Positions 4,854-58,322 of a DNA stretch of 64,000 bases are shown piece after piece (position 1 is the first letter of the stretch; every line of letters begins with the position of its first letter). The notes below the pieces were generated by a model. That model was given only the letters and a program-made list of their open reading frames with translations. It was not told where the DNA came from and did not search any database. Both the position numbers and the translations under genes were made by a program. Source of the stretch: Gemmatimonadota bacterium (GTDB taxonomy: Bacteria > Gemmatimonadota > Gemmatimonadetes > Gemmatimonadales > GWC2-71-9); contig JBGPDL010000002.1 in NCBI GenBank assembly GCA_041482275.1, positions 16,545-80,544 of the forward strand, in the 5' to 3' direction.

Positions 4854-5569
4854 CCCACGCCGATCGTGGCCCACGGGTGCGCCGTCCACTCGTCCAGCGC
4901 GGCGGTGACCGGGAGGACGCGGCCGCCGTCGATGGCATTCGGCACCTTGTAGGAGACGGGATACTTGAGCTTCCAGAGCAGCAGGCGAAAGTCGCCGCGC
5001 ACGGAGAGGCGCCGGGCGGGGTACCACCGCAGCCCGGCGTTGGGAGCCAGGGTGATCTTGGTGCCGAACTGGTAGCCGCTGGTGTCGCGCGCCACGGTGC
5101 TGCCGACGGCCACGCCGAGCGCTCCGCCCACATACGGGGCGAACCCGTGCCAGGTCTTCCGGCCGGTGAGCACCAGCTGGAGCCCGGCGTCGGCGAGCAC
5201 CACGGTGTTGTCGAACGGGCCGCTCTTGCGCGACAGAGAATCCTTGGTGGGGTCCGCCACGAAGCTCGTCGTCCGCCCGTAGGCGAGGCCGAGTGACGCG
5301 CCGATGGCGCCGAGCTGCGGCTCGTAGCGGATCCCCCCCGTCACGCCATTGGAAAGGCCGACGCCCACGCTCCCCCGGCCGCCGCCCAGATACCCGAACG
5401 TCACGACCGCCACGCCGCCGCGCCGGACGTCGCCGTACGGGGAATGGGCGGGGTCGTGGCCGACCTGGGCGGATAGCCGGTGAAACGGGTGGGCGGTCAG
5501 CAGCACCGCCGCTGCGACCATCGCCGCCGCTCTAATCGCCCACCCGTCTAACCGGCTCGCCTTTCGCAT
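4841..5569 (-). CDS. Small outer-membrane beta-barrel protein, function unknown
   Basis: C-terminal 242 aa of ORF 4841..6655, from ATG 5569 (MRKASRLDGWAIRAAAMVAAAVLL = signal peptide). Alternating beta-strand pattern, Gly/aromatic rich, terminal ...GVGWTF. The start shares 1 nt with the gpmI stop. Confidence 0.6.
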   Translation of the reverse strand: MRKASRLDGWAIRAAAMVAAAVLLTAHPFHRLSAQVGHDPAHSPYGDVRRGGVAVVTFGYLGGGRGSVGVGLSNGVTGGIRYEPQLGAIGASLGLAYGRTTSFVADPTKDSLSRKSGPFDNTVVLADAGLQLVLTGRKTWHGFAPYVGGALGVAVGSTVARDTSGYQFGTKITLAPNAGLRWYPARRLSVRGDFRLLLWKLKYPVSYKVPNAIDGGRVLPVTAALDEWTAHPWATIGVGWTF

Positions 5570-7110
5570 CAGTCCGTCTCCCTGAGATCGCGCCCCGTCA
5601 TCTCGGGCGGCGGTTCGATATCGAGCATGCGGAGCAGTGTCGGGCCCACGTCGCGGAGCGAGCCCCCATGGCGCAGCGGACCGCGGGTCTCGTCGCCCAC
5701 GATACAGAACGGCACCGGATTGGTCGTGTGCGCCGTGTGCGGGCCGTCGGTCGTGGGATCGATCATGAGCTCGCAGTTGCCGTGGTCCGCCGTGACGAGC
5801 AGGGTGGCCCCGCGTCGCTCGGCGCTCTTCACGACGCGTTCCAGACACCGGTCTACCGTTTCCACCGCCTTCACGGCGGCGCTTAGTACCCCGGAGTGGC
5901 CGACCATGTCCCCGTTCGCGTAGTTGCACAGGATGAAGTCGTGGTGTCCAGCCTCGATCGCTTTGCACAGTACATCCGTAACGCCCGGTGCGCTCATCTC
6001 GGGCATGAGATCGTAGGTCGCGACCTTCTGCGACGGCACGAGCAGCCGCTCCTCGCCCGCGTAGGGCGCTTCCAGGCCGCCGTTGAAGAAATAGGTGACG
6101 TGGGCGTACTTCTCCGTTTCGGCGGTGCGGAACATGGTCTTCCCCCGCTCGGACAGCACCTCGGCGACGATACGCCGCAGCGTGATCGGCTCGAAGGCCA
6201 CCGGGAAGGCGAACGTCTCGTCGTACTGCGTCATGGTAACGACGTCGACCGCGGGGCGGGCGCCCGCGTCGAAGCCGTCGAACCCTTCCGCTGCAAGCGC
6301 CCGCACGATCTGGCGCATGCGGTCGGCCCGGAAGTTGAAGCAGAACACCCCGTCGCCCGCGCGGATGCGGGGCGTGCCGGCGATCACCCGCGGGCGCACG
6401 AACTCGTCGGTCTCGCCGGCCTCGTACGCGCGGCGGATCGCGCTGAGCGGGTCGGGCGCGGGCTCGCCCACGCCGTGCACCATCGCGTCGTACGCGATCC
6501 TCGTGCGCTCCCAGCGCTTGTCGCGGTCCATCGGGTAGTAGCGGCCCACGACCGTCGCCACCACCGCCCGCCCGCCGTACTGGTCGAGCAAGTCCACGAG
6601 CTCCTGCATGAAGGCGAGCCCCGATTGCGGCGGCGTGTCGCGCCCGTCCAGCCACGCGTGGATGGCCACCGGCAGATCGTGCAGGTGGGCGAGCATGACG
6701 GCTGCGACGAGGTGCTGGTCGAGGGCGTGCACGCCGCCGCTGCCGATCAGCCCGAGCAAGTGAAGCGTCCCGCCGCGCCGCTTTACGGCCTCACACAGCT
6801 CGACGAGCGGCGGCAGCCGGAAAAACTCGCCCGACTCGATGGCCTGGGAGATGCGCACGATGTCCTGCGACACGACGCGCCCGGCGCCGAGGTTCAGATG
6901 CCCCACCTCGCTGTTGCCGATCTGTCCCTCGGGCAGTCCCACAGCGAGTCCCGACGCGTTGAGGAGAGTGCGCGGAGCCCGGCTCCAGAGGCGATGCCAG
7001 GTGGGCGTCTCTCCCAGCTCGATGGCGTTGCCCTCCCGGCCGGGACGGAAGCCCCAGCCGTCGAGCACGATCAGGACGACCGGGGTGCGCGGCCCATTCC
7101 TCTTTGCCAT
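5569..7110 (-). CDS. gpmI: 2,3-bisphosphoglycerate-independent phosphoglycerate mutase
   Basis: ORF 5569..7188, start re-set to ATG 7110 (MAKRNGPRTPVVLIVLDGWG). GNSEVGHLNLGAGR and ADHGN motifs. Confidence 0.92.
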   Translation of the reverse strand: MAKRNGPRTPVVLIVLDGWGFRPGREGNAIELGETPTWHRLWSRAPRTLLNASGLAVGLPEGQIGNSEVGHLNLGAGRVVSQDIVRISQAIESGEFFRLPPLVELCEAVKRRGGTLHLLGLIGSGGVHALDQHLVAAVMLAHLHDLPVAIHAWLDGRDTPPQSGLAFMQELVDLLDQYGGRAVVATVVGRYYPMDRDKRWERTRIAYDAMVHGVGEPAPDPLSAIRRAYEAGETDEFVRPRVIAGTPRIRAGDGVFCFNFRADRMRQIVRALAAEGFDGFDAGARPAVDVVTMTQYDETFAFPVAFEPITLRRIVAEVLSERGKTMFRTAETEKYAHVTYFFNGGLEAPYAGEERLLVPSQKVATYDLMPEMSAPGVTDVLCKAIEAGHHDFILCNYANGDMVGHSGVLSAAVKAVETVDRCLERVVKSAERRGATLLVTADHGNCELMIDPTTDGPHTAHTTNPVPFCIVGDETRGPLRHGGSLRDVGPTLLRMLDIEPPPEMTGRDLRETD

Positions 7111-7120
7111 ATTGGAGGGA

Positions 7121-8187
7121 ATGCAATCTAGCCGGGCCTTCAGCGCCCTTCCAGTTGTCCTATCGCTCGCGCTTCCCTTGCCGCTCATGGCCCAAGCGCG
7201 CTATCGAGTCACCACCGACGGCGCCTGGTTCTACCAGGAAGCGGGCGGCAAGCGCCTGGCGCGGCTGGCGCGCGGGGCCGTTGTCGTGGGCGGCGATGCG
7301 CAGGGCGACTGGCAGGGGGCCACCGTGGAGGGCTGGATCTTCGCGACGTCGGTGGCCCCGACCTCCCGCTCGGGCTACGATCTGGCCGTGACGCGCGCGC
7401 CCGAGGAGAACTTGCGCTCCGCCCCGGCCGGCGCCCTCATCGGCAAGCTGCCCCAGGGATTCCTCCTGAACCGCGTCGCCGAGGGTAGCTCGGACCGGTG
7501 GGTGCACGTGACCCGCGCCGGCTGGGTCGAGAAGACGGACCTCGAATCGGTGACCCAGGTCGCGAGTTCGCGTAGCGTCGCTCCTGCCGATTCGGACACC
7601 GGGGCGGCGCACTCCACGCCGATCCGGCGCCCCGTGGCCTCGGGCGACAGCATGCCGCTTCCCCCCGGGTCGGCTCCCGTCGACCCGGCGCGCGTCGAGT
7701 CCGCAAGGCGCACGGTGCTGTATCGCGCACCCGAGGGGCAGCCCGTGGGGACGCTGGCGCCGTCGGCCCCGCTCCGGGTGCTGGGGCGATCGGGGGAATG
7801 GACCCGCGTCGAGATCGAGGGATGGGTGAAGAGCGCCGACCTGGAGATCGCGCCGCCCGGCGTGCTCGTGGGGATCACGGCCGCCGAGCTGCGAACCGAC
7901 CCGCAGCGCTACACGGGCCAGGTGCTCCGCTGGACGCTGCAGTTCATCTCGGCGCAGAAGGCCGACGAGCTGCGGCCCGAGATGCCGAACGGTGCCACGT
8001 ATTTTCTGGCCCGCGGCCCGCTGCCCGAGCGGGGGTTCGTGTACGTCGTGGTTCCGGAGGCGAAGCGCGCTCAGCTCGAGGCGCTGGCACCGCTCGCCAC
8101 CATCCAGGTCACCGCGCGCGTCCGCGCCGGCCGCACCCGGTTCCTCGGCAACCCGGTGCTGGATCTGATCAGCCTCGAGACCCTGCC

Positions 8188-18492: not shown

Positions 18493-19590
18493 GTGCCCGC
18501 TTCCGATCCTCTCCGGGCGCGCATCGAGCGCGCTCTTGCCCAACTCAAGAATCCTCGCAGCGGGACCGACGTCCTGTCGGGCGGCATGGTCAAGGACCTC
18601 GCCGTGGACCAGGGGGGGACCGTCACGTTCACGTTTCTGCTCGGCCGCGACGATCCCGGGTCGCTCGCCCGCGACGTGCGCAGGGCCGTCCAAGGAGTTT
18701 CTGGCGTGACGGCTGTGCGCGTGAACGTCCTGGATGCGAGCAATGCCACGGAGGGTACCGCTCCCCGCCAGACCGCTCCCCGACCGACACCGGGGGCCGT
18801 CCCCCCCCCGCCCACGCCGGTCGAGCTACCCCACCTTGGGAAGGTGATCGCGATCTCGTCCGGCAAGGGCGGCGTGGGCAAGTCCACCGTCTCCACCAAC
18901 GTCGCGGTGGCGCTGGCGCGGGCGGGCCACCGCGTGGGACTGATGGACGCCGACATCTACGGGCCCAACATTCCGCGCATGATGGGTGCCGACGCAAAGC
19001 CCGAGGTGCGGGGCGGCAAGATCCAACCGCTCGAAGCCCACGGCGTGAAGCTCATGTCGCTCGGTCTGATCGTGGAGCGCGACGCCCCCGCCATCTGGCG
19101 CGGTCCGATCATCATGAAGGTGATCCAGCAGTTCGTGCGCGACGTGGACTGGGGCGAGCTCGACTACTTCCTCGTGGACCTGCCGCCCGGCACCGGCGAT
19201 GCGCAGCTGTCGCTCGCCCAGACGGTGCACATCCGAGCCGCGATCATCGTCACCACGCCGCAGGAGGTTGCGGTGGGCGACAGCCTGCGCGGTGCGAAGA
19301 TGTTCGAGCGGGTCGGCGTTCCGGTGCTCGGGGTGGTGGAGAACATGAGCTACTACGTGTGCCCGCATTGCGGCGAGCGCTCCGAGATCTTCCTCGCGGG
19401 CGGGGGAACCCGGCTCGCCGACGAGCTGGGCGTCCCGCTGCTCGGCCAGATCCCGCTGCAGGCGCGGATGCCCGATCTGGCCGACGCGGGCAGGCCGATC
19501 GTCGTGGCGGAGCCGGACTCACCCGCGGCCCAGGCGCTCGACGCCGTCGCCCGCCGCTTGACCGACGCGCTCGCCGCGCTCACGCACTGA
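18493..19590 (+). CDS. apbC: Fe-S cluster carrier ATPase Mrp/ApbC/NBP35 family
   Basis: ORF 18493..19590. N-terminal DUF59-like part, SGKGGVGKST deviant Walker A, and CPHCGE near the C-terminal half. Confidence 0.9.
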   Translation: MPASDPLRARIERALAQLKNPRSGTDVLSGGMVKDLAVDQGGTVTFTFLLGRDDPGSLARDVRRAVQGVSGVTAVRVNVLDASNATEGTAPRQTAPRPTPGAVPPPPTPVELPHLGKVIAISSGKGGVGKSTVSTNVAVALARAGHRVGLMDADIYGPNIPRMMGADAKPEVRGGKIQPLEAHGVKLMSLGLIVERDAPAIWRGPIIMKVIQQFVRDVDWGELDYFLVDLPPGTGDAQLSLAQTVHIRAAIIVTTPQEVAVGDSLRGAKMFERVGVPVLGVVENMSYYVCPHCGERSEIFLAGGGTRLADELGVPLLGQIPLQARMPDLADAGRPIVVAEPDSPAAQALDAVARRLTDALAALTH

Positions 19591-21736: not shown

Positions 21737-22480
21737 ATGGCGACCCTCATTACCCTGGTTACGGATCTCGGCGGCGCCGACAGCTACGTGGGCGAGGTGA
21801 AGGGCGTGCTCCTGTCGCAAGTGCACGGGGCCGCCCTCGTGGACATCACGCACCACATCCCCCCGGGCGACGTGCGCGCGGCGCAGTACGTCCTGTCGCG
21901 AGTGTGGCACCGCTTCCCCCAGGGGAGCGTGCACCTCGCGGTGGTGGATCCCGGCGTCGGCACGGATCGCCGCGCGCTGGCCGCGTCGCTGGCCGGCCAC
22001 TTCTTCGTGGCGCCCGACAACGGCCTGCTCTCGTTCCTCCCGGCAGAGGCGCACTTCGCCGCATTGCCGGTCCCGGCGACGGCCGCTCCGACCTTCCACG
22101 CGCGGGACGTGTTCGCGCCGGCGGCGGGCAAGCTCGCGCTCGGCGCGTCGCTTTCGCACGTGGGTCATTCCATCACCGACGTGTACCGCTCCCCGCTCCC
22201 GGCCCCTCGTCACGACGGCACGGTGGTGATCGGCGAGGTGATCTACGTTGACCGCTTCGGCACGCTCATCTCGAACATCCCGGGCCAGGCGGTCGAGCCC
22301 GGCGTGCGCATCAAGGTCGCAGGCACGGAGATCGGCACGCTGGCGCGCACGTTCGGCGACGTGACGCGCGGGGCCCTGGTGGCGTTGGTGGGGAGCGGCG
22401 GAACGGTGGAGATCGCGGTGCGCGACGGCAGCGCCGCGCGCCTGCTAGGAGTCGGTGTGGGGGCGGAGGTGCGGGCCTGA
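21737..22480 (+). CDS. S-adenosyl-L-methionine hydroxide adenosyltransferase family protein (DUF62)
   Basis: Last 247 aa of ORF 21161..22480, from ATG 21737 (MATLITLVTDLGGADSYVGEVKGVL...VVDPGVGT...FVAPDNGLL). Confidence 0.85.
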   Translation: MATLITLVTDLGGADSYVGEVKGVLLSQVHGAALVDITHHIPPGDVRAAQYVLSRVWHRFPQGSVHLAVVDPGVGTDRRALAASLAGHFFVAPDNGLLSFLPAEAHFAALPVPATAAPTFHARDVFAPAAGKLALGASLSHVGHSITDVYRSPLPAPRHDGTVVIGEVIYVDRFGTLISNIPGQAVEPGVRIKVAGTEIGTLARTFGDVTRGALVALVGSGGTVEIAVRDGSAARLLGVGVGAEVRA

Positions 22481-26438: not shown

Positions 26439-26444
26439 ACCTCG

Positions 26445-26529
26445 TGCGTGGTGCGTGGTGCGTGGTCTCTCCGCCGCGTCGGAAGCCCCCGGTGCCACGG
26501 GGGCAACCACGTACCACGCACCACGTACC
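26445..26529 (+). repeat. Triple-heptad inverted repeat (23-bp stem, nested inner hairpin) in the ubiA-ubiX spacer
   Basis: 26445-26467 is GTGCGTG x3 + GT. 26507-26529 is ACCACGT ACCACGC ACCACGT AC. 21 Watson-Crick plus 2 G:T pairs, checked base by base. Inner stem 26486-26492 / 26499-26505. Confidence 0.9.
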
Positions 26530-36539: not shown

Positions 36540-37936
36540 ATGACCGACACCTTGATGGTCGGGGTCTCGGGCGTCCGCGGCATCGTCGGGAAGGACTTGA
36601 CCGAGGAGATCGTGGCGCGCTGGGCCCGCGCGTTCGGGCGTTGGGTGCGCGAGGGGAGGGCCGGGGGACGGGGGACGCGTGTGTCCGTCGTGGTCGGGCG
36701 CGATGCGCGGACCTCGGGACCCGCGTTCACCGCCGCCGTGACCGCCGGCCTGACCGCTGCCGGCTGCGACGTGGTCGACGTCGGCCTCGTGCCCACCCCC
36801 ACGGTCCAGCTCGCGGTCGAGTACCACCACGCGGGCGGCGGGATCGCGATCACGGCGAGCCACAACCCGATCGAGTGGAACGCACTGAAGTTCATCGGCT
36901 CGGACGGGATATTCCTCGACGGGGACGACGGTCGCCGAGTGTCCGAGCTCGCCGCGCCGCAGGGGGAACGGGGGACCCTCAAGGACTCCCTGACGGTCGC
37001 GGGGGGAGGGGGAAGGGTAGAGACGGACGCCCACGCTGTCGAGCGGCATCTCGACGGAGTGTTGCAGCTGTCGGCGGTGGACCTTCAGGGGATTCGGAAG
37101 CGGAGGTTCGCGGTGGCACTCGATGCGGTGCGTGGGGCGGGAGGCCCCGTGATGCGCACGCTGCTCGAGCGGCTGGGCTGTCGTGTCGTGGGGATCAACC
37201 TCGAGACGGACGGTCGGTTTCCTCGTGCGCCCGAGCCGATTCCGGAGAACCTGGGTGAGCTCGCCGCCCTGGTGCGTCGCTCGGGCACGGATGTCGGCCT
37301 CGCCGTGGACCCGGACGTGGACCGGATGGCGATCGTGGACGACCGAGGCGCGCCGATCGGGGAGGACTATACGCTGGCGCTGGCGGTGAGAGCGGTGTTG
37401 GGGCAGGGGGAAGAGGGAAGACGGAAGGGTGCCGTCGTCGTTTGCAACCTGTCCACGAGCCTCGTCGTCGAAGACGCGGCGCGCGAGTGCGGCGCCGAGG
37501 TCGTGCGTACGCCGGTGGGCGAGGCTCACGTCGCACGGAAGATCATCGAGCTCAGGGCCCCGATCGGCGGCGAAGGGAACGGCGGGGTGATATATCCCGC
37601 GTTGCACGTCGGGCGCGACGCGCCGGTGGCCGCGGCGCTGCTGCTCACGCTGCTCGCCCGGGAGGGCCGTCGGGTGAGCGAGCTGGTGGTGGCGGCCCCG
37701 CGGTACGTGATCGTCAAGGCCAAGGTGCCCCGAGGCCCGGCGCTCGAGCCGGTGTACGCCGCGCTGCGCCGAGGGCTCGCCGACGCCCGGGCGGACACGC
37801 AGGACGGCTTGCGCCTGGCCTGGCGCGACCGCTGGCTCCACGTGCGACCGTCGAATACGGAGCCGATCATCCGGCTCATCGCCGAAGCGCCGACCGGCGC
37901 GGCGGCGCGGGACCTGGTCGACGAAGGACGGCGTCT

Positions 37937-37952
<16 letters not shown>
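36540..37952 (+). CDS. Phosphohexose mutase family (phosphoglucosamine/phosphomanno-mutase; glmM-like by context)
   Basis: ORF 36540..37952. Active-site TASHNPIEWNALKF and metal loop AVDPDVDR. Overlaps the glmS start by 16 nt. Confidence 0.85.
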
Positions 37953-53000: not shown

Positions 53001-53485
53001 CGGTCACCTGGCGTACCGTACCGGCGACACTCCGCACCCTGGCGCGCTGGACGATGATCGTCCAGGTCGTGGGCTACACCACGTCGCTGGTGTTCGTGTG
53101 GCACACCACGCGGCTCACGCCGCCGGGGATCGCGTCGCGCTACCGCGGCGCGAACCCCGAGGCGGTCGAAGGCGCGATGCAGTTCCCGAAGTCGTTCGCG
53201 GAGATGCTCACGATCACCCACACGCACCTGCTCTCGATGGCGGTGATCTTCGTGATCACGGGGATCGGGGTGGCCTTGTGCGAGCGGATGGGGGAGCGCT
53301 GGAAGCGGCTGCTCGTGGCCGAGCCGTTCGCCGCCCTGCTGGTCTCGTTTGCGGCGATGTGGCTCATGCGTTACGGGGACGCGCGATTCGCGTGGCTGCT
53401 CGAGGCCTCGAGCTCGGTGCTGGCCGTGACGTTCTATGTGCAGTCCTATCTGATCCTCCGCGAGCTTCGTCGTGCAGCGGCGTGA
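52997..53485 (+). CDS. 4-TM membrane protein with conserved-looking His cluster (THTH), function unknown
   Basis: Last 162 aa of ORF 52835..53485. The ATG at 52997 overlaps the upstream stop (ATGA). Four hydrophobic helices, with His in WHTTR and ITHTHLL. Confidence 0.55.
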   Translation: MTVTWRTVPATLRTLARWTMIVQVVGYTTSLVFVWHTTRLTPPGIASRYRGANPEAVEGAMQFPKSFAEMLTITHTHLLSMAVIFVITGIGVALCERMGERWKRLLVAEPFAALLVSFAAMWLMRYGDARFAWLLEASSSVLAVTFYVQSYLILRELRRAAA

Positions 53486-54410
53486 CTTCTTGCAGGTGGT
53501 AGGCGCCGGCTGTTGGGCGCTGGGGACGGGTATGCCATGTCTCGACGTCCGGGACGACGTGTTCGTCGAGCGCTGGTCGTGGGCCATGGGCCAGGCGGTG
53601 CACGTCATGGTGTTCGCCGCCTCGGAGCAGGAGGGGCTCGATGGCTGCGCCGCGGCGCTCGCGGAGCTGCGGCGGGTGGAGACCCGGCTCACCCTGTTCG
53701 ACGACGCGAGCGACCTGTGCGAGCTGAACCGCTGTGCCGGCCGGAAGGGGATGCGCGTCGACCGGGATCTGCGCGCGGTGCTCGAGCTCGCCGGAGCGTT
53801 CCAACGGCAAACCGGCGGCGCGTTCGACGTTGCGGTCGAGCCGCTGATGCGCGTGTGGGGGTTTCGCCGGCCGCGGGCGAGCGCACCGGCGGCGTCTGAG
53901 CTCGCCGAGGCACGCGCCGCCGTGGCGGCGGCTGTGGTGCTGCTCCACGGGGACGTGGCCCGGCTGCCGAGCGCCCACACCCAGCTCGACTTCGGCTCGA
54001 TCGGCGTGGGCTACGGCATCGACCGGGCGCTTCAGGTGTTGCGCGGGCGCGGGTTGGGTCGGGCGTTCCTCGACGTGAGCGGCGACGTGGCCGCGCTCGG
54101 CGCGCCGCCCGGAGAGTCGGGTTGGTTGGTGGAGATCGCCGATCCAGACCGGCACCATCGCGCCGTGGCTGCGACGCGACTCCGCGACGCGGCACTCGCC
54201 ACCGCGGCGAACACGGAGGCGATCGTGCGTTACGGTTCGCTCGTCGCCGGGCACGTGATGGACCCGGCGACCGGGTGGCCGGCGCGGGCGCTCACGCAGG
54301 CCTCGGTGGTGACGCGCACGGCGACGGCGGCGGACGCGTTGTCCACGGCGATGCTGGTGTCGGGGCGGAAGCCGCTCGGCGCCCTTCGCAGCTACGCCGT
54401 ACGCTCCTGA
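53472..54410 (+). CDS. apbE: FAD:protein FMN transferase ApbE
   Basis: ORF 53472..54410. Tat-like N-terminus (QRRDFLQVVGAG). GGAFDVAVEPLMRVWGF and GVGYGIDRA motifs. Confidence 0.88.
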   Translation: MQRRDFLQVVGAGCWALGTGMPCLDVRDDVFVERWSWAMGQAVHVMVFAASEQEGLDGCAAALAELRRVETRLTLFDDASDLCELNRCAGRKGMRVDRDLRAVLELAGAFQRQTGGAFDVAVEPLMRVWGFRRPRASAPAASELAEARAAVAAAVVLLHGDVARLPSAHTQLDFGSIGVGYGIDRALQVLRGRGLGRAFLDVSGDVAALGAPPGESGWLVEIADPDRHHRAVAATRLRDAALATAANTEAIVRYGSLVAGHVMDPATGWPARALTQASVVTRTATAADALSTAMLVSGRKPLGALRSYAVRS

Positions 54411-55041
54411 ATCAGCCCCGCGATCGCCTCCCGCAGCTCCTCAATCCCTTCGATCCGCCGGGCGCTGGTCGCGATCACCTGATCGTCGCCCAGCTCGAGC
54501 GTCTGGCGCAGCTCGCGCTCTCGCCGCCCGCGCCCGGCGCGCGCCAGCGTGTCACTCTTCGTGAGGACCACGAGCACCCGCGTGCCGCGCTCGGCGAACA
54601 GCTCCTGCATCGCGCGGTCGTCCGCGGACGGCTCGTGGCGGATGTCGAGCAGCCAGAGTACCCCGACGAGGGTGGGGCGCTTGAGCGCGTGGGTGATGAG
54701 GAGGCGGAACGCCCGGCGGTCGGTCTGCGACGCGCGCGCGTACCCGTAGCCGGGGAGATCCAGAACGTACAGGGAGCGGGGAGCAGGGAGCGGTTCCTGA
54801 CGCTGCGCCGGAGGGCACCGCTCCCCGCTCCCCGCTCCCAGGACATACACGTTCAGCATCCGCGTCTTCCCCGGCGTGCCGGAGATTTTCGCGATCCGTC
54901 GCCCCGCCAGGGCATTCAGCAGGCTCGATTTGCCGACGTTGGAGCGGCCCAGCAGGGCGATTTCAGGGAGGGCGGGAGCAAGGGAAACGTCGGCCCGGGG
55001 AAACGAGCCGAGGAAGCGGGGCTCGGCGGGAGCGGGGGGGG

Positions 55042-55045
<4 letters not shown>
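54392..55045 (-). CDS. engB: Ribosome-biogenesis GTPase EngB/YihA (start codon unresolved)
   Basis: C-terminal part of ORF 54392..56194. [20 protein letters not shown] (G1), DLPGYGYA (G3), TKSD (G4). There is no ATG/GTG/TTG between the clpX stop and the conserved N-region. Candidates are CTG 55045 (CTGA overlap) or GTG 55108. Confidence 0.8.
54772..54839 (-). repeat. Triple-heptad inverted repeat (23-bp stem) embedded in frame in engB
   Basis: + strand: 54772-54794 is GGGAGCG GGGAGCA GGGAGCG GT; 54817-54839 is AC CGCTCCC CGCTCCC CGCTCCC. 22 Watson-Crick pairs plus one A:C, which is U:G in the engB mRNA. 22-nt loop. Checked base by base. Confidence 0.9.
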
Positions 55046-56292
<1,247 letters not shown>

Positions 56293-58198: not shown

Positions 58199-58251
58199 CG
58201 GGAAGAAATCTAACAGGTCCAGCGGGACACGCAGGGAGCAGAACATGCCAC

Positions 58252-58301
58252 GGCTAGACGCACAGACGCACAGCAGGAGAGTTGGGGGGTCGCGTCTAGC
58301 C
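58252..58301. other. 10-bp perfect inverted repeat with a tandem 8-mer in the left arm, in the DUF421-tig spacer
   Basis: GGCTAGACGC (58252-58261) and GCGTCTAGCC (58292-58301). AGACGCAC is repeated twice at 58256-58271. TTTT follows on the + strand only, whereas the flanking genes are on the minus strand. Confidence 0.7.
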
Positions 58302-58322
58302 TTTTCCCGTTCTGTCCCCTGC

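Follow-up and report, generated by a model that had tools for sequence, protein, structure and literature searches.

We describe here a 64,000-nucleotide stretch of a Gemmatimonadota genome (order Gemmatimonadales; assembly GCA_041482275.1, contig JBGPDL010000002.1, positions 16,545 to 80,544 of the forward strand), hereafter the window, in which engB, the gene of a ribosome-biogenesis GTPase, carries in frame a palindrome with arms of tandem heptads (Table 1). The engB open reading frame encodes the G1, TPGKT (G2), and DLPGYG (G3) motifs, its product matches solved EngB structures (1sul, E = 8e-29) and Pfam MMR_HSR1, and its closest database relatives are the ribosome biogenesis GTP-binding proteins YihA/YsxC of Gemmatimonadales. 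The genes tig, clpP, and clpX precede engB on the same strand, and a gene of the ApbE family converges on it. The probable start is the GTG at 55108, which makes engB overlap the 3' end of clpX by 67 nt in another frame (55042-55108); no other canonical start lies ahead of the region coding for G1, and the annotation of orthologs includes this MRHRRP.. extension too, the conserved part of EngB beginning near 55024.

Table 1. Elements of the window, heptad types at the engB site, and octad hairpins after engB in related genomes (L001 to L080)
Feature	Locus	Position	Strand	Basis or remark
engB/yihA/ysxC, ribosome-biogenesis GTPase, host gene	window	54392..55108	-	motifs, relatives, 1sul, MMR_HSR1
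Arm 1, (GGGAGCG)(GGGAGCA)(GGGAGCG)GT on + strand	window	54772..54794		engB-sense 3' C-rich arm, codes ..PLPAPRS
Central spacer, 22 nt	window	54795..54816		ends GGT-GCCCTCCG (sense) and ..GGAACC before other arm, the family inner core
Arm 2, AC(CGCTCCC)x3 on + strand	window	54817..54839		engB-sense 5' G-rich arm, codes GAGSGER
Sister element, (GTGCGTG)x3-GT arms, 39-nt spacer	window	26444..26528 (arms 26444-26466/26506-26528)	+	inverted repeat, Tandem Repeats Finder
Degenerate half copy of GGGAGCG family, GGGAGCGGTCTGGCGGGGAGCG-GTACCCTCCG, no matching right arm	window	18749..18790	-	exact core GGTACCCTCCG
Arm fragment GGGAGCGGGGAGCGGTAC	window	22183..22200	-	sequence match
Composite hairpin, 31-nt arms 77% complementary, GGGAGCAG + octad AGACGCAC x2, tig leader	window	58231..58322	.	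inverted repeat
GGGAGCG at engB site	window, L001, L002, L003, L010, L014, L023, L039
GTGCGTG at engB site	L004, L005, L025			exactly the heptad of the window intergenic element at 26444
GTGCGCG at engB site	L011, L016, L063
GGGAGAG at engB site	L009
GGGAGAA/T at engB site	L020, L032, L075
GGGACGR at engB site	L041
GGGAGTG at engB site	L024, L028, L057, L080
GGGAGTC at engB site	L035, L067, L068
GGGGCTC at engB site	L012, L013, L015
GGGGCGT at engB site	L054
GTGGYCG at engB site	L052, L053, L056, L065, L074
GGAGCAC at engB site	L047
Post-engB octad hairpins	related genomes	L001 10613-10674, L004 9452-9526, L018 10650-10740, L054 1400-1484, L059 10589-10660, L062 10581-10668, L080 6169-6256, and others

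The two arms of this 68-nt element lie 22 nt apart and pair over 23 bp, with 22 Watson-Crick pairs and one A:C at 54785/54826 that becomes G:U in the minus-strand RNA, i.e., the engB sense transcript. It is the longest inverted repeat of the window in the inverted-repeat listing, and Tandem Repeats Finder gives period 7 x 3.1 for each arm. Read directly from the sequence, the coordinates, pairing, wobble, and loop length were all as the initial annotation of this DNA had given them, and RNA folding agreed with its statement that the stem is uninterrupted in the sense transcript (-65.2 kcal/mol, z = -6.2, 23 of 23 pairs). The + strand RNA folds at -61.5 kcal/mol (z = -8.0) with one internal mismatch, and for either strand none of 200 shuffles folded as well. 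A scan of the whole window at Rfam gathering thresholds gave no match, and neither a GTAG nor a CGTC tag flanks the heptad arms of the window element or of the elements in the census described below. Each arm holds three GGG tracts, below the at least four needed for G-quadruplex potential; as G-poor families also exist, a G-quadruplex was rejected as a general function. A terminator reading of the stem was likewise rejected, as no U-tract follows it, the sole terminator-like match lying elsewhere in engB. This match, a hairpin with a T-rich tail in the 5' part of engB (55011-54990, minus strand), stands right after the clpX stop and is a consensus match only.

The in-frame insertion into engB, as well as its location in a solvent-exposed turn, had been claimed initially, and both are borne out. 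Besides the translation, the database relatives, and the Pfam match, only residues 18-62 and 85-205 of the conserved part have a counterpart in B. subtilis YsxC (1sul), so that the window protein is longer by a net ~19 amino acids. In an AlphaFold2 model based on 38 orthologs, with a mean predicted local distance difference test score (pLDDT) of 82.8, residues 64-83 are placed between strands 57-63 and 84-89, and pLDDT falls below 50 at residues 65-81. This placement and the low pLDDT support a model in which the insert (~19-20 residues) forms a disordered tip on the beta2-beta3 hairpin and is tolerated there as a surface loop. The VYVL/LYVL similarity on either side of the insert was considered as a target-site duplication and rejected, because it stems from the two beta strands and other genomes lack it.

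The DNA between PGKTRxxN and LDLPGYG was extracted from 80 Gemmatimonadales engB loci (L001 to L080), each related genome being represented by a piece of at most 20 kb and the source genome by the 64-kb window. In ~30 of the 80 genomes, this site measures 27-30 nt (VFEMPAYYL or VFLIDxSHYF) and is empty; among these is P0025, a close relative at the protein level (75% identical). Most of the remaining genomes have 42-123 nt at the site, i.e., 15-96 extra nt, mostly as strong tandem-heptad hairpins. Lineage specificity of the ~19-amino-acid insert and its palindrome, which the ortholog alignment was to decide, is therefore supported within the order: both are present in part of Gemmatimonadales, and the insert is absent from many orthologs and from the solved EngB structures. 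The same insert occurs in independent assemblies (P0002, with 98% identity, L001, and L003). At least 13 heptad types occupy the site, grouped by clade (Table 1). Asymmetric or minimal forms exist as well, with 3-4 left heptads versus ~1 right heptad in L015 and L080, a C-rich array only in L077, and two heptads per arm around a 4-nt loop in L025.

At the engB site, elements with different heptads have homologous spacers, as in L009 (GGGAGAG; GCGCCCGATGCTCACCG) and L011 (GTGCGCG; GCGCCCGATGCGCATCGG), to which those of L004, L005, L010, and L014 are related; this argues for one ancestral insertion. The spacer motif of L009 and L011 was not seen in spacers at other loci among the census and metagenome elements. 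In three genomes, the codon position of the engB insert is taken by a GTAG-tagged palindrome not built of heptads, GTAGGGGCGCAGCATGCTGCGCCCCTAC, coding PVGAQHAAPLH (L006 10175-10246, L007 10175-10249, and L055 4813-4884). L008 seems to retain a remnant of it (1387-1431), and the stem of the GTAG-tagged palindrome contains GGGGCGC, a heptad unit in L013. Two contigs with a Gemmatimonadales-type engB carry other labels, Chloroflexi for VBIU01000222.1 (L045) and Steroidobacteraceae for DATBIF010000029.1 (L050); they look mis-binned in their source metagenome-assembled genomes (MAGs), and L045 and L041 do not differ in their engB insert.

The engB palindrome is not isolated, as 3-4 full or partial copies of the family lie within the window. 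The sister element at 26444 has the same geometry of 3 x 7 nt plus GGT/ACC as the engB copy and folds at -70.7 kcal/mol (z = -5.9); it occupies the intergenic region between a UbiA-family gene, whose stop codon it follows at a distance of 6 nt, and a downstream gene for a flavoprotein (UbiX-like), and its GTGCGTG family has no GGG tracts. On the + strand, the arm fragment at 22183-22200 is read in frame as SPLPAPR, part of the linker between two domains encoded by a SAM hydroxide adenosyltransferase-like gene. The composite hairpin at 58231-58322 is the window counterpart of a hairpin site recurrent ~3.3 kb upstream of engB in relatives. In searching the window for such copies, the core motif GGTNCCCTCCG with one mismatch was found 11 times versus 11 expected, so that only exact matches beside heptad arms are meaningful, and short arm seeds with two mismatches were weakly above chance, so that exact or extended matches alone were used.

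A census of inverted repeats with periodic arms in the window and the 80 related loci (81 genomes, 1.24 Mb) returned ~46 period-7 and ~19 period-8 paired-arm elements; no period-6 paired arms were found in the 1.24 Mb, and period 5 gave GC-rich noise only. The proposal that the engB element and the intergenic one (placed at 26445 in the initial annotation) form one class is thereby upheld, and further elements of this geometry were found in the 1.24 Mb. The heptad form GNGNGNG is not general, since GGGAGAA, GGGACGR, GGGGCTC, GTGGYCG, and GGAGCAC arms also occur. Besides engB, the recurrent sites are located ~3.3 kb upstream (tig leader), just after the engB stop, and ~2.3 kb downstream (GTGAGAG). 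In L003, L011, and L047, the engB and -3.3 kb sites share their heptad, while heptads vary between genomes. On either strand, the G/GT-rich arm is 5' and the C/AC-rich arm 3' in 63 of the 65 census elements; candidate causes of this polarity are a G-rich nascent-strand fold-back, the avoidance of exposed C-rich RNA, and strand-specific transposition.

The family was also sought in metagenomes (sample L081 to L200) with the pattern GKGMGYG (G[GT]G[AC]G[CT]G) x3 followed by GT. Most of the returned loci were plain (GTGAGTG)n/(GTGAGCG)n arrays from many taxa and all GC classes, and the subset with a partner arm was used; as plain arrays without a partner are widespread, heptad arrays are not specific to the GGGAGCG palindrome family. 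At ~23 metagenome loci, a partner arm matching at least 18 of 23 positions lies 3' of the G arm, and no locus has one 5' of it. GGGAGCG palindromes were found in contigs of GC ~0.7 at >12 unrelated non-engB loci, with a shared non-repetitive core, (GGGAGCG)3-GT-ACCCTCCG ... CGGAGGGT-AC-(CGCTCCC)3. Such a core at unrelated loci is not explicable by independent local slippage and thus argues for copying between loci. Three intact genes contain in-frame copies, i.e., those of an HhH-GPD glycosylase, of LigD (in the linker between the ligase and primase-polymerase domains), and of an EamA transporter (in the first loop). In a contig of GC 0.48 (L143, 1073-1300), a (CGCTCCC)n run merges into an extended (CGTCCTC/CGTCTTC)n heptamer array; arrays of CGCTCCC units exist well outside Gemmatimonadota.

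Covariation was measured by aligning 17 engB inserts and counting pairs for the 23-bp stem. Pairing was retained in 90% of stem cells versus 47-62% in slid controls, and 11 of the 23 pairs had changed on both sides, giving 45 compensatory cells, a value reached by none of 500 shuffles. In both arms, variable positions return every 7 nt through all three heptads, so that the change is concerted. A comparison of the window with L001 shows identity at 44 of 46 arm positions and 17 of 22 spacer positions, but at only ~76-78% of the engB flanks (derived from two-sequence column identities of 88% and 89%); the segment coding for the disordered loop is thus held tighter than the surrounding gene. The initial annotation of the G:U wobble in the window element hinted at selection on the sense transcript. 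However, arm mismatches on the sense strand of orthologous and sister elements, counted by hand, comprise 8 G:T versus 8 A:C. The wobble bias is therefore not general, which speaks against selection acting specifically on the sense RNA.

We propose that the engB insert is probably a REP/REPIN-like dispersed palindrome with arms of heptameric simple sequence repeats (SSR), tolerated in a loop, kept palindromic by slippage, template switching or conversion, and overwriting, and without engB-specific function. The family layout is a G-rich arm 5' and a C-rich arm 3', with the inner core GGT(A/G)CCCTCCG...CGGAGGG(A/T)ACC around a variable spacer. A copy would have entered the codons of the EngB beta2-beta3 hairpin tip in the ancestor of part of Gemmatimonadales, and would have persisted because ~20-30 extra disordered residues are probably harmless there and the heptads bring no stop codon in any frame. 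Upkeep of the palindrome would then be a matter of DNA-level concerted evolution and not of EngB function: slippage could spread or remove heptad variants within one arm, template switching within the palindrome or gene conversion could copy the changes to the opposite arm, and the arms could sometimes be overwritten by the heptad family current in that genome. The simplest account would be an old engB insertion, the arms of which were homogenised and replaced later while the spacer was inherited. As for mobility, we infer it only from the core shared by dispersed copies.

Several points weigh against this model. The GTAG-tagged palindrome found at the engB codon position in three genomes argues for repeated hits or overwriting, against a single ancestral insertion. 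No transposase, RAYT/IS200-like or other, was identified in the 64-kb window and in the relative pieces of at most 20 kb, no genome-wide search being made, and a comparison by eye of filled with empty alleles revealed no direct repeat consistently bordering the insert. Gains and losses were also mapped on the phylogeny by eye, and the taxonomic origin of the metagenome contigs was inferred from GC content alone. Finally, strong covariation is equally expected from a selected RNA structure.

Purely local growth, in which a palindrome or SSR diversified in situ by heptamer slippage and quasipalindrome template switching, with neither copying between loci nor a mobile family, is unlikely. It would account for the asymmetric intermediates at the engB site (L015, L080, L077, and L025), for the homology of engB-site spacers across heptad types, and for the wide occurrence of partnerless heptamer arrays in metagenomes, and an excess of heptamers has been ascribed to polymerase slippage in work as cited in PMC4692102. 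Yet the core GGT(A/G)CCCTCCG is common to GGGAGCG elements at many unrelated loci, identical arms occupy two sites 3.3 kb apart in three genomes while heptads differ between genomes, and the arms have diverged less than the coding DNA around them.

It is more doubtful still that a cis-acting RNA structure is selected in the clpX-engB mRNA, as a pause, an RNase site, or a stability element tuning EngB, with the peptide as a by-product. The very strong compensatory changes, the uninterrupted stem of the window sense RNA, and the retention of the site across >20% protein divergence would all suit such a structure. However, ~30 of the 80 related genomes, including P0025, do without the insert, its length ranges over 15-96 extra nt, the hand count of mismatches in orthologs shows no sense-strand wobble bias, the stem has no U-tract or other terminator signature and no Rfam match, and identical elements occur in unrelated genes and intergenic spacers.

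The beta2-beta3 hairpin between switch I and switch II is a functionally sensitive region of GTPases. The position of the insert on this hairpin and its retention in many lineages could suggest an adaptive protein loop, Gly/Ser-rich then Pro-rich, giving EngB a new ribosome interaction, the DNA palindrome being incidental. We regard this as very improbable. The peptide changes wholly with the heptad type (e.g., SGRWPVA..TTDH) and is thus dictated by DNA palindromy rather than by protein conservation; moreover, its pLDDT is <50, many orthologs have no insert, and the same peptide occurs in unrelated proteins. A chance palindrome or an assembly artefact, for which nothing speaks except the high genome GC content, can practically be dismissed given the shuffled controls and the recurrence of the insert in independent assemblies.

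Other repeats were observed around engB and elsewhere in the window. Right after the engB stop, many related genomes have tandem 8-mer hairpins (e.g., GGCGGTTA, GACGGCTA, and GGAAAGAT; Table 1). The window leaves no room for such a spacer, since the last 19 nt of engB also belong to the convergent ApbE-family gene (53472-54410). An inverted repeat at 5475-5557, with 26-nt arms that are 85% complementary, stands just 3' of the stop of the 2,3-bisphosphoglycerate-independent phosphoglycerate mutase gene (iPGM; 5569-7188, minus strand), and its arm GCCGGTTAGACGGGTGGGCGATTAG on the iPGM sense strand looks like a degenerate member of the GGCGGTTA octads. A hairpin CCGGGC-N4-GCCCGGGG is repeated three times in an intergenic region (at 2640, 2675, and 2719, within 2640-2745), with GTAGGG nearby, and the three copies appear to be a cluster of another REP-like repeat. 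In a phosphoglucomutase/phosphomannomutase-family gene (36540-37952), the period-7 G-rich runs GGGACGG x2.9 (36658-36677) and GGGAAGA x2.9 (37408-37427), next to which a search showed no partner arm, could be what is left of half-arms or a product of chance.

Literature searches for repeat papers specific to Gemmatimonadetes found nothing. Paired heptamer arrays, in Xanthomonas and Nostoc, are already known, as are intragenic REPs and Rickettsia palindromic elements (RPE). As far as these searches go, three things are new: the lineage of the host, the number of heptad families that coexist and replace one another around a common core, and the single engB codon position that records them in frame across an order. 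A universally conserved gene offers, at one codon position shared by orthologs, an in-frame record of palindrome-family turnover, in which arm covariation, heptad homogenisation, and presence or absence can be read against the EngB tree. The host range of heptameric-SSR hairpins extends to Gemmatimonadota, and a G-quadruplex is not their common denominator since many families have no G-tracts. For RNA-motif discovery, our results call for caution, as strong covariation in a coding region can stem from DNA-level concerted evolution of a repeat. The same holds for annotation, as repeats give rise to low-complexity loops (GAGSGER...PLPAPRS) in the proteins of these MAGs. A more speculative hypothesis, to which we give little credit at present, is that heptad and octad hairpins of Gemmatimonadota, Xanthomonas, and cyanobacteria form one phylum-spanning class of self-propagating DNA structures with fixed polarity and dedicated machinery. 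If so, a RAYT-like single-strand transposase or a polymerase-specific template-switch process would build, homogenise, and overwrite hairpins genome-wide, and the engB loop would be a natural reporter site where successive families are read in frame.

Among known systems, the REP/REPIN elements are, as those described here appear to be, short dispersed palindromes preferring gene 3' ends, with genome-specific sequence families, copies that persist at orthologous positions while the type changes, and occasional in-frame intragenic copies. In Pseudomonas, orthologous intergenic spaces keep a REPIN while its type changes, and REPINs "may be overwritten" (REPORTH preprint, 10.1101/2024.10.14.618302). 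REPs are typically extragenic, whereas the engB copy is intragenic, but REPs inside genes, often DNA repair genes, are documented and code 20-30 residues, and two Xanthomonas species carry different REPs at nearly one and the same place in recB (Di Nocera et al. 2013, PMC3733652). REP/REPIN elements go with RAYT transposases (Bertels and Rainey 2011, PMC3116915); in contrast, no RAYT was identified here, the heptad elements have no GTAG/CGTC tag, and their arms are internally tandem-repetitive. Miniature inverted-repeat transposable elements, which are small and non-autonomous, likewise have inverted-repeat ends and many copies, but the present elements are much shorter (46-113 bp) and nearly all stem, and neither a target-site duplication (by eye) nor a parent insertion sequence was seen. 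Ogata and colleagues are said to have described, in 2000, RPEs in frame in many unrelated, often essential genes, at tolerated surface-exposed segments. The engB palindrome is likewise a palindromic repeat in frame in a gene, the resemblance being functional only, as RPEs are 100-150 bp long, Rickettsia-specific, unrelated in sequence, and without tandem-heptad arms; they are mentioned in PMC3733652 and PMC10969869.

The closest likeness in architecture contradicts the initial view that such an arrangement had not been described outside cyanobacteria, the STRR repeats of which are heptamers (PMC4692102). A Xanthomonas genome has 70-75 convergent pairs of GGGAATC heptamer arrays able to form stem-loops, and Nostoc has GGGGAYT heptamer arrays (Rehm et al. 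2015, PMC4692102). These arrays are mostly intergenic (89-93% in Xanthomonas), near the 3' end of the upstream ORF, and of unknown function, and those of Xanthomonas occur at the same positions in two species with varying length and sequence (PMC4692102). As in these SSR pairs, which have 2-4 or more, often G-rich units, the heptamers described here are in tandem and convergent, with the G-rich array first on either strand, and the window element at 26444 is also intergenic and close after a stop codon, unlike the engB copy. The system of Gemmatimonadales differs in its host, in its many coexisting and turning-over heptad families, not all of which are G-quadruplex-capable (GTGCGTG and GTGGYCG), in its typical three units instead of four, in its conserved non-repetitive inner core, and in having the engB copy and several others in frame inside genes.

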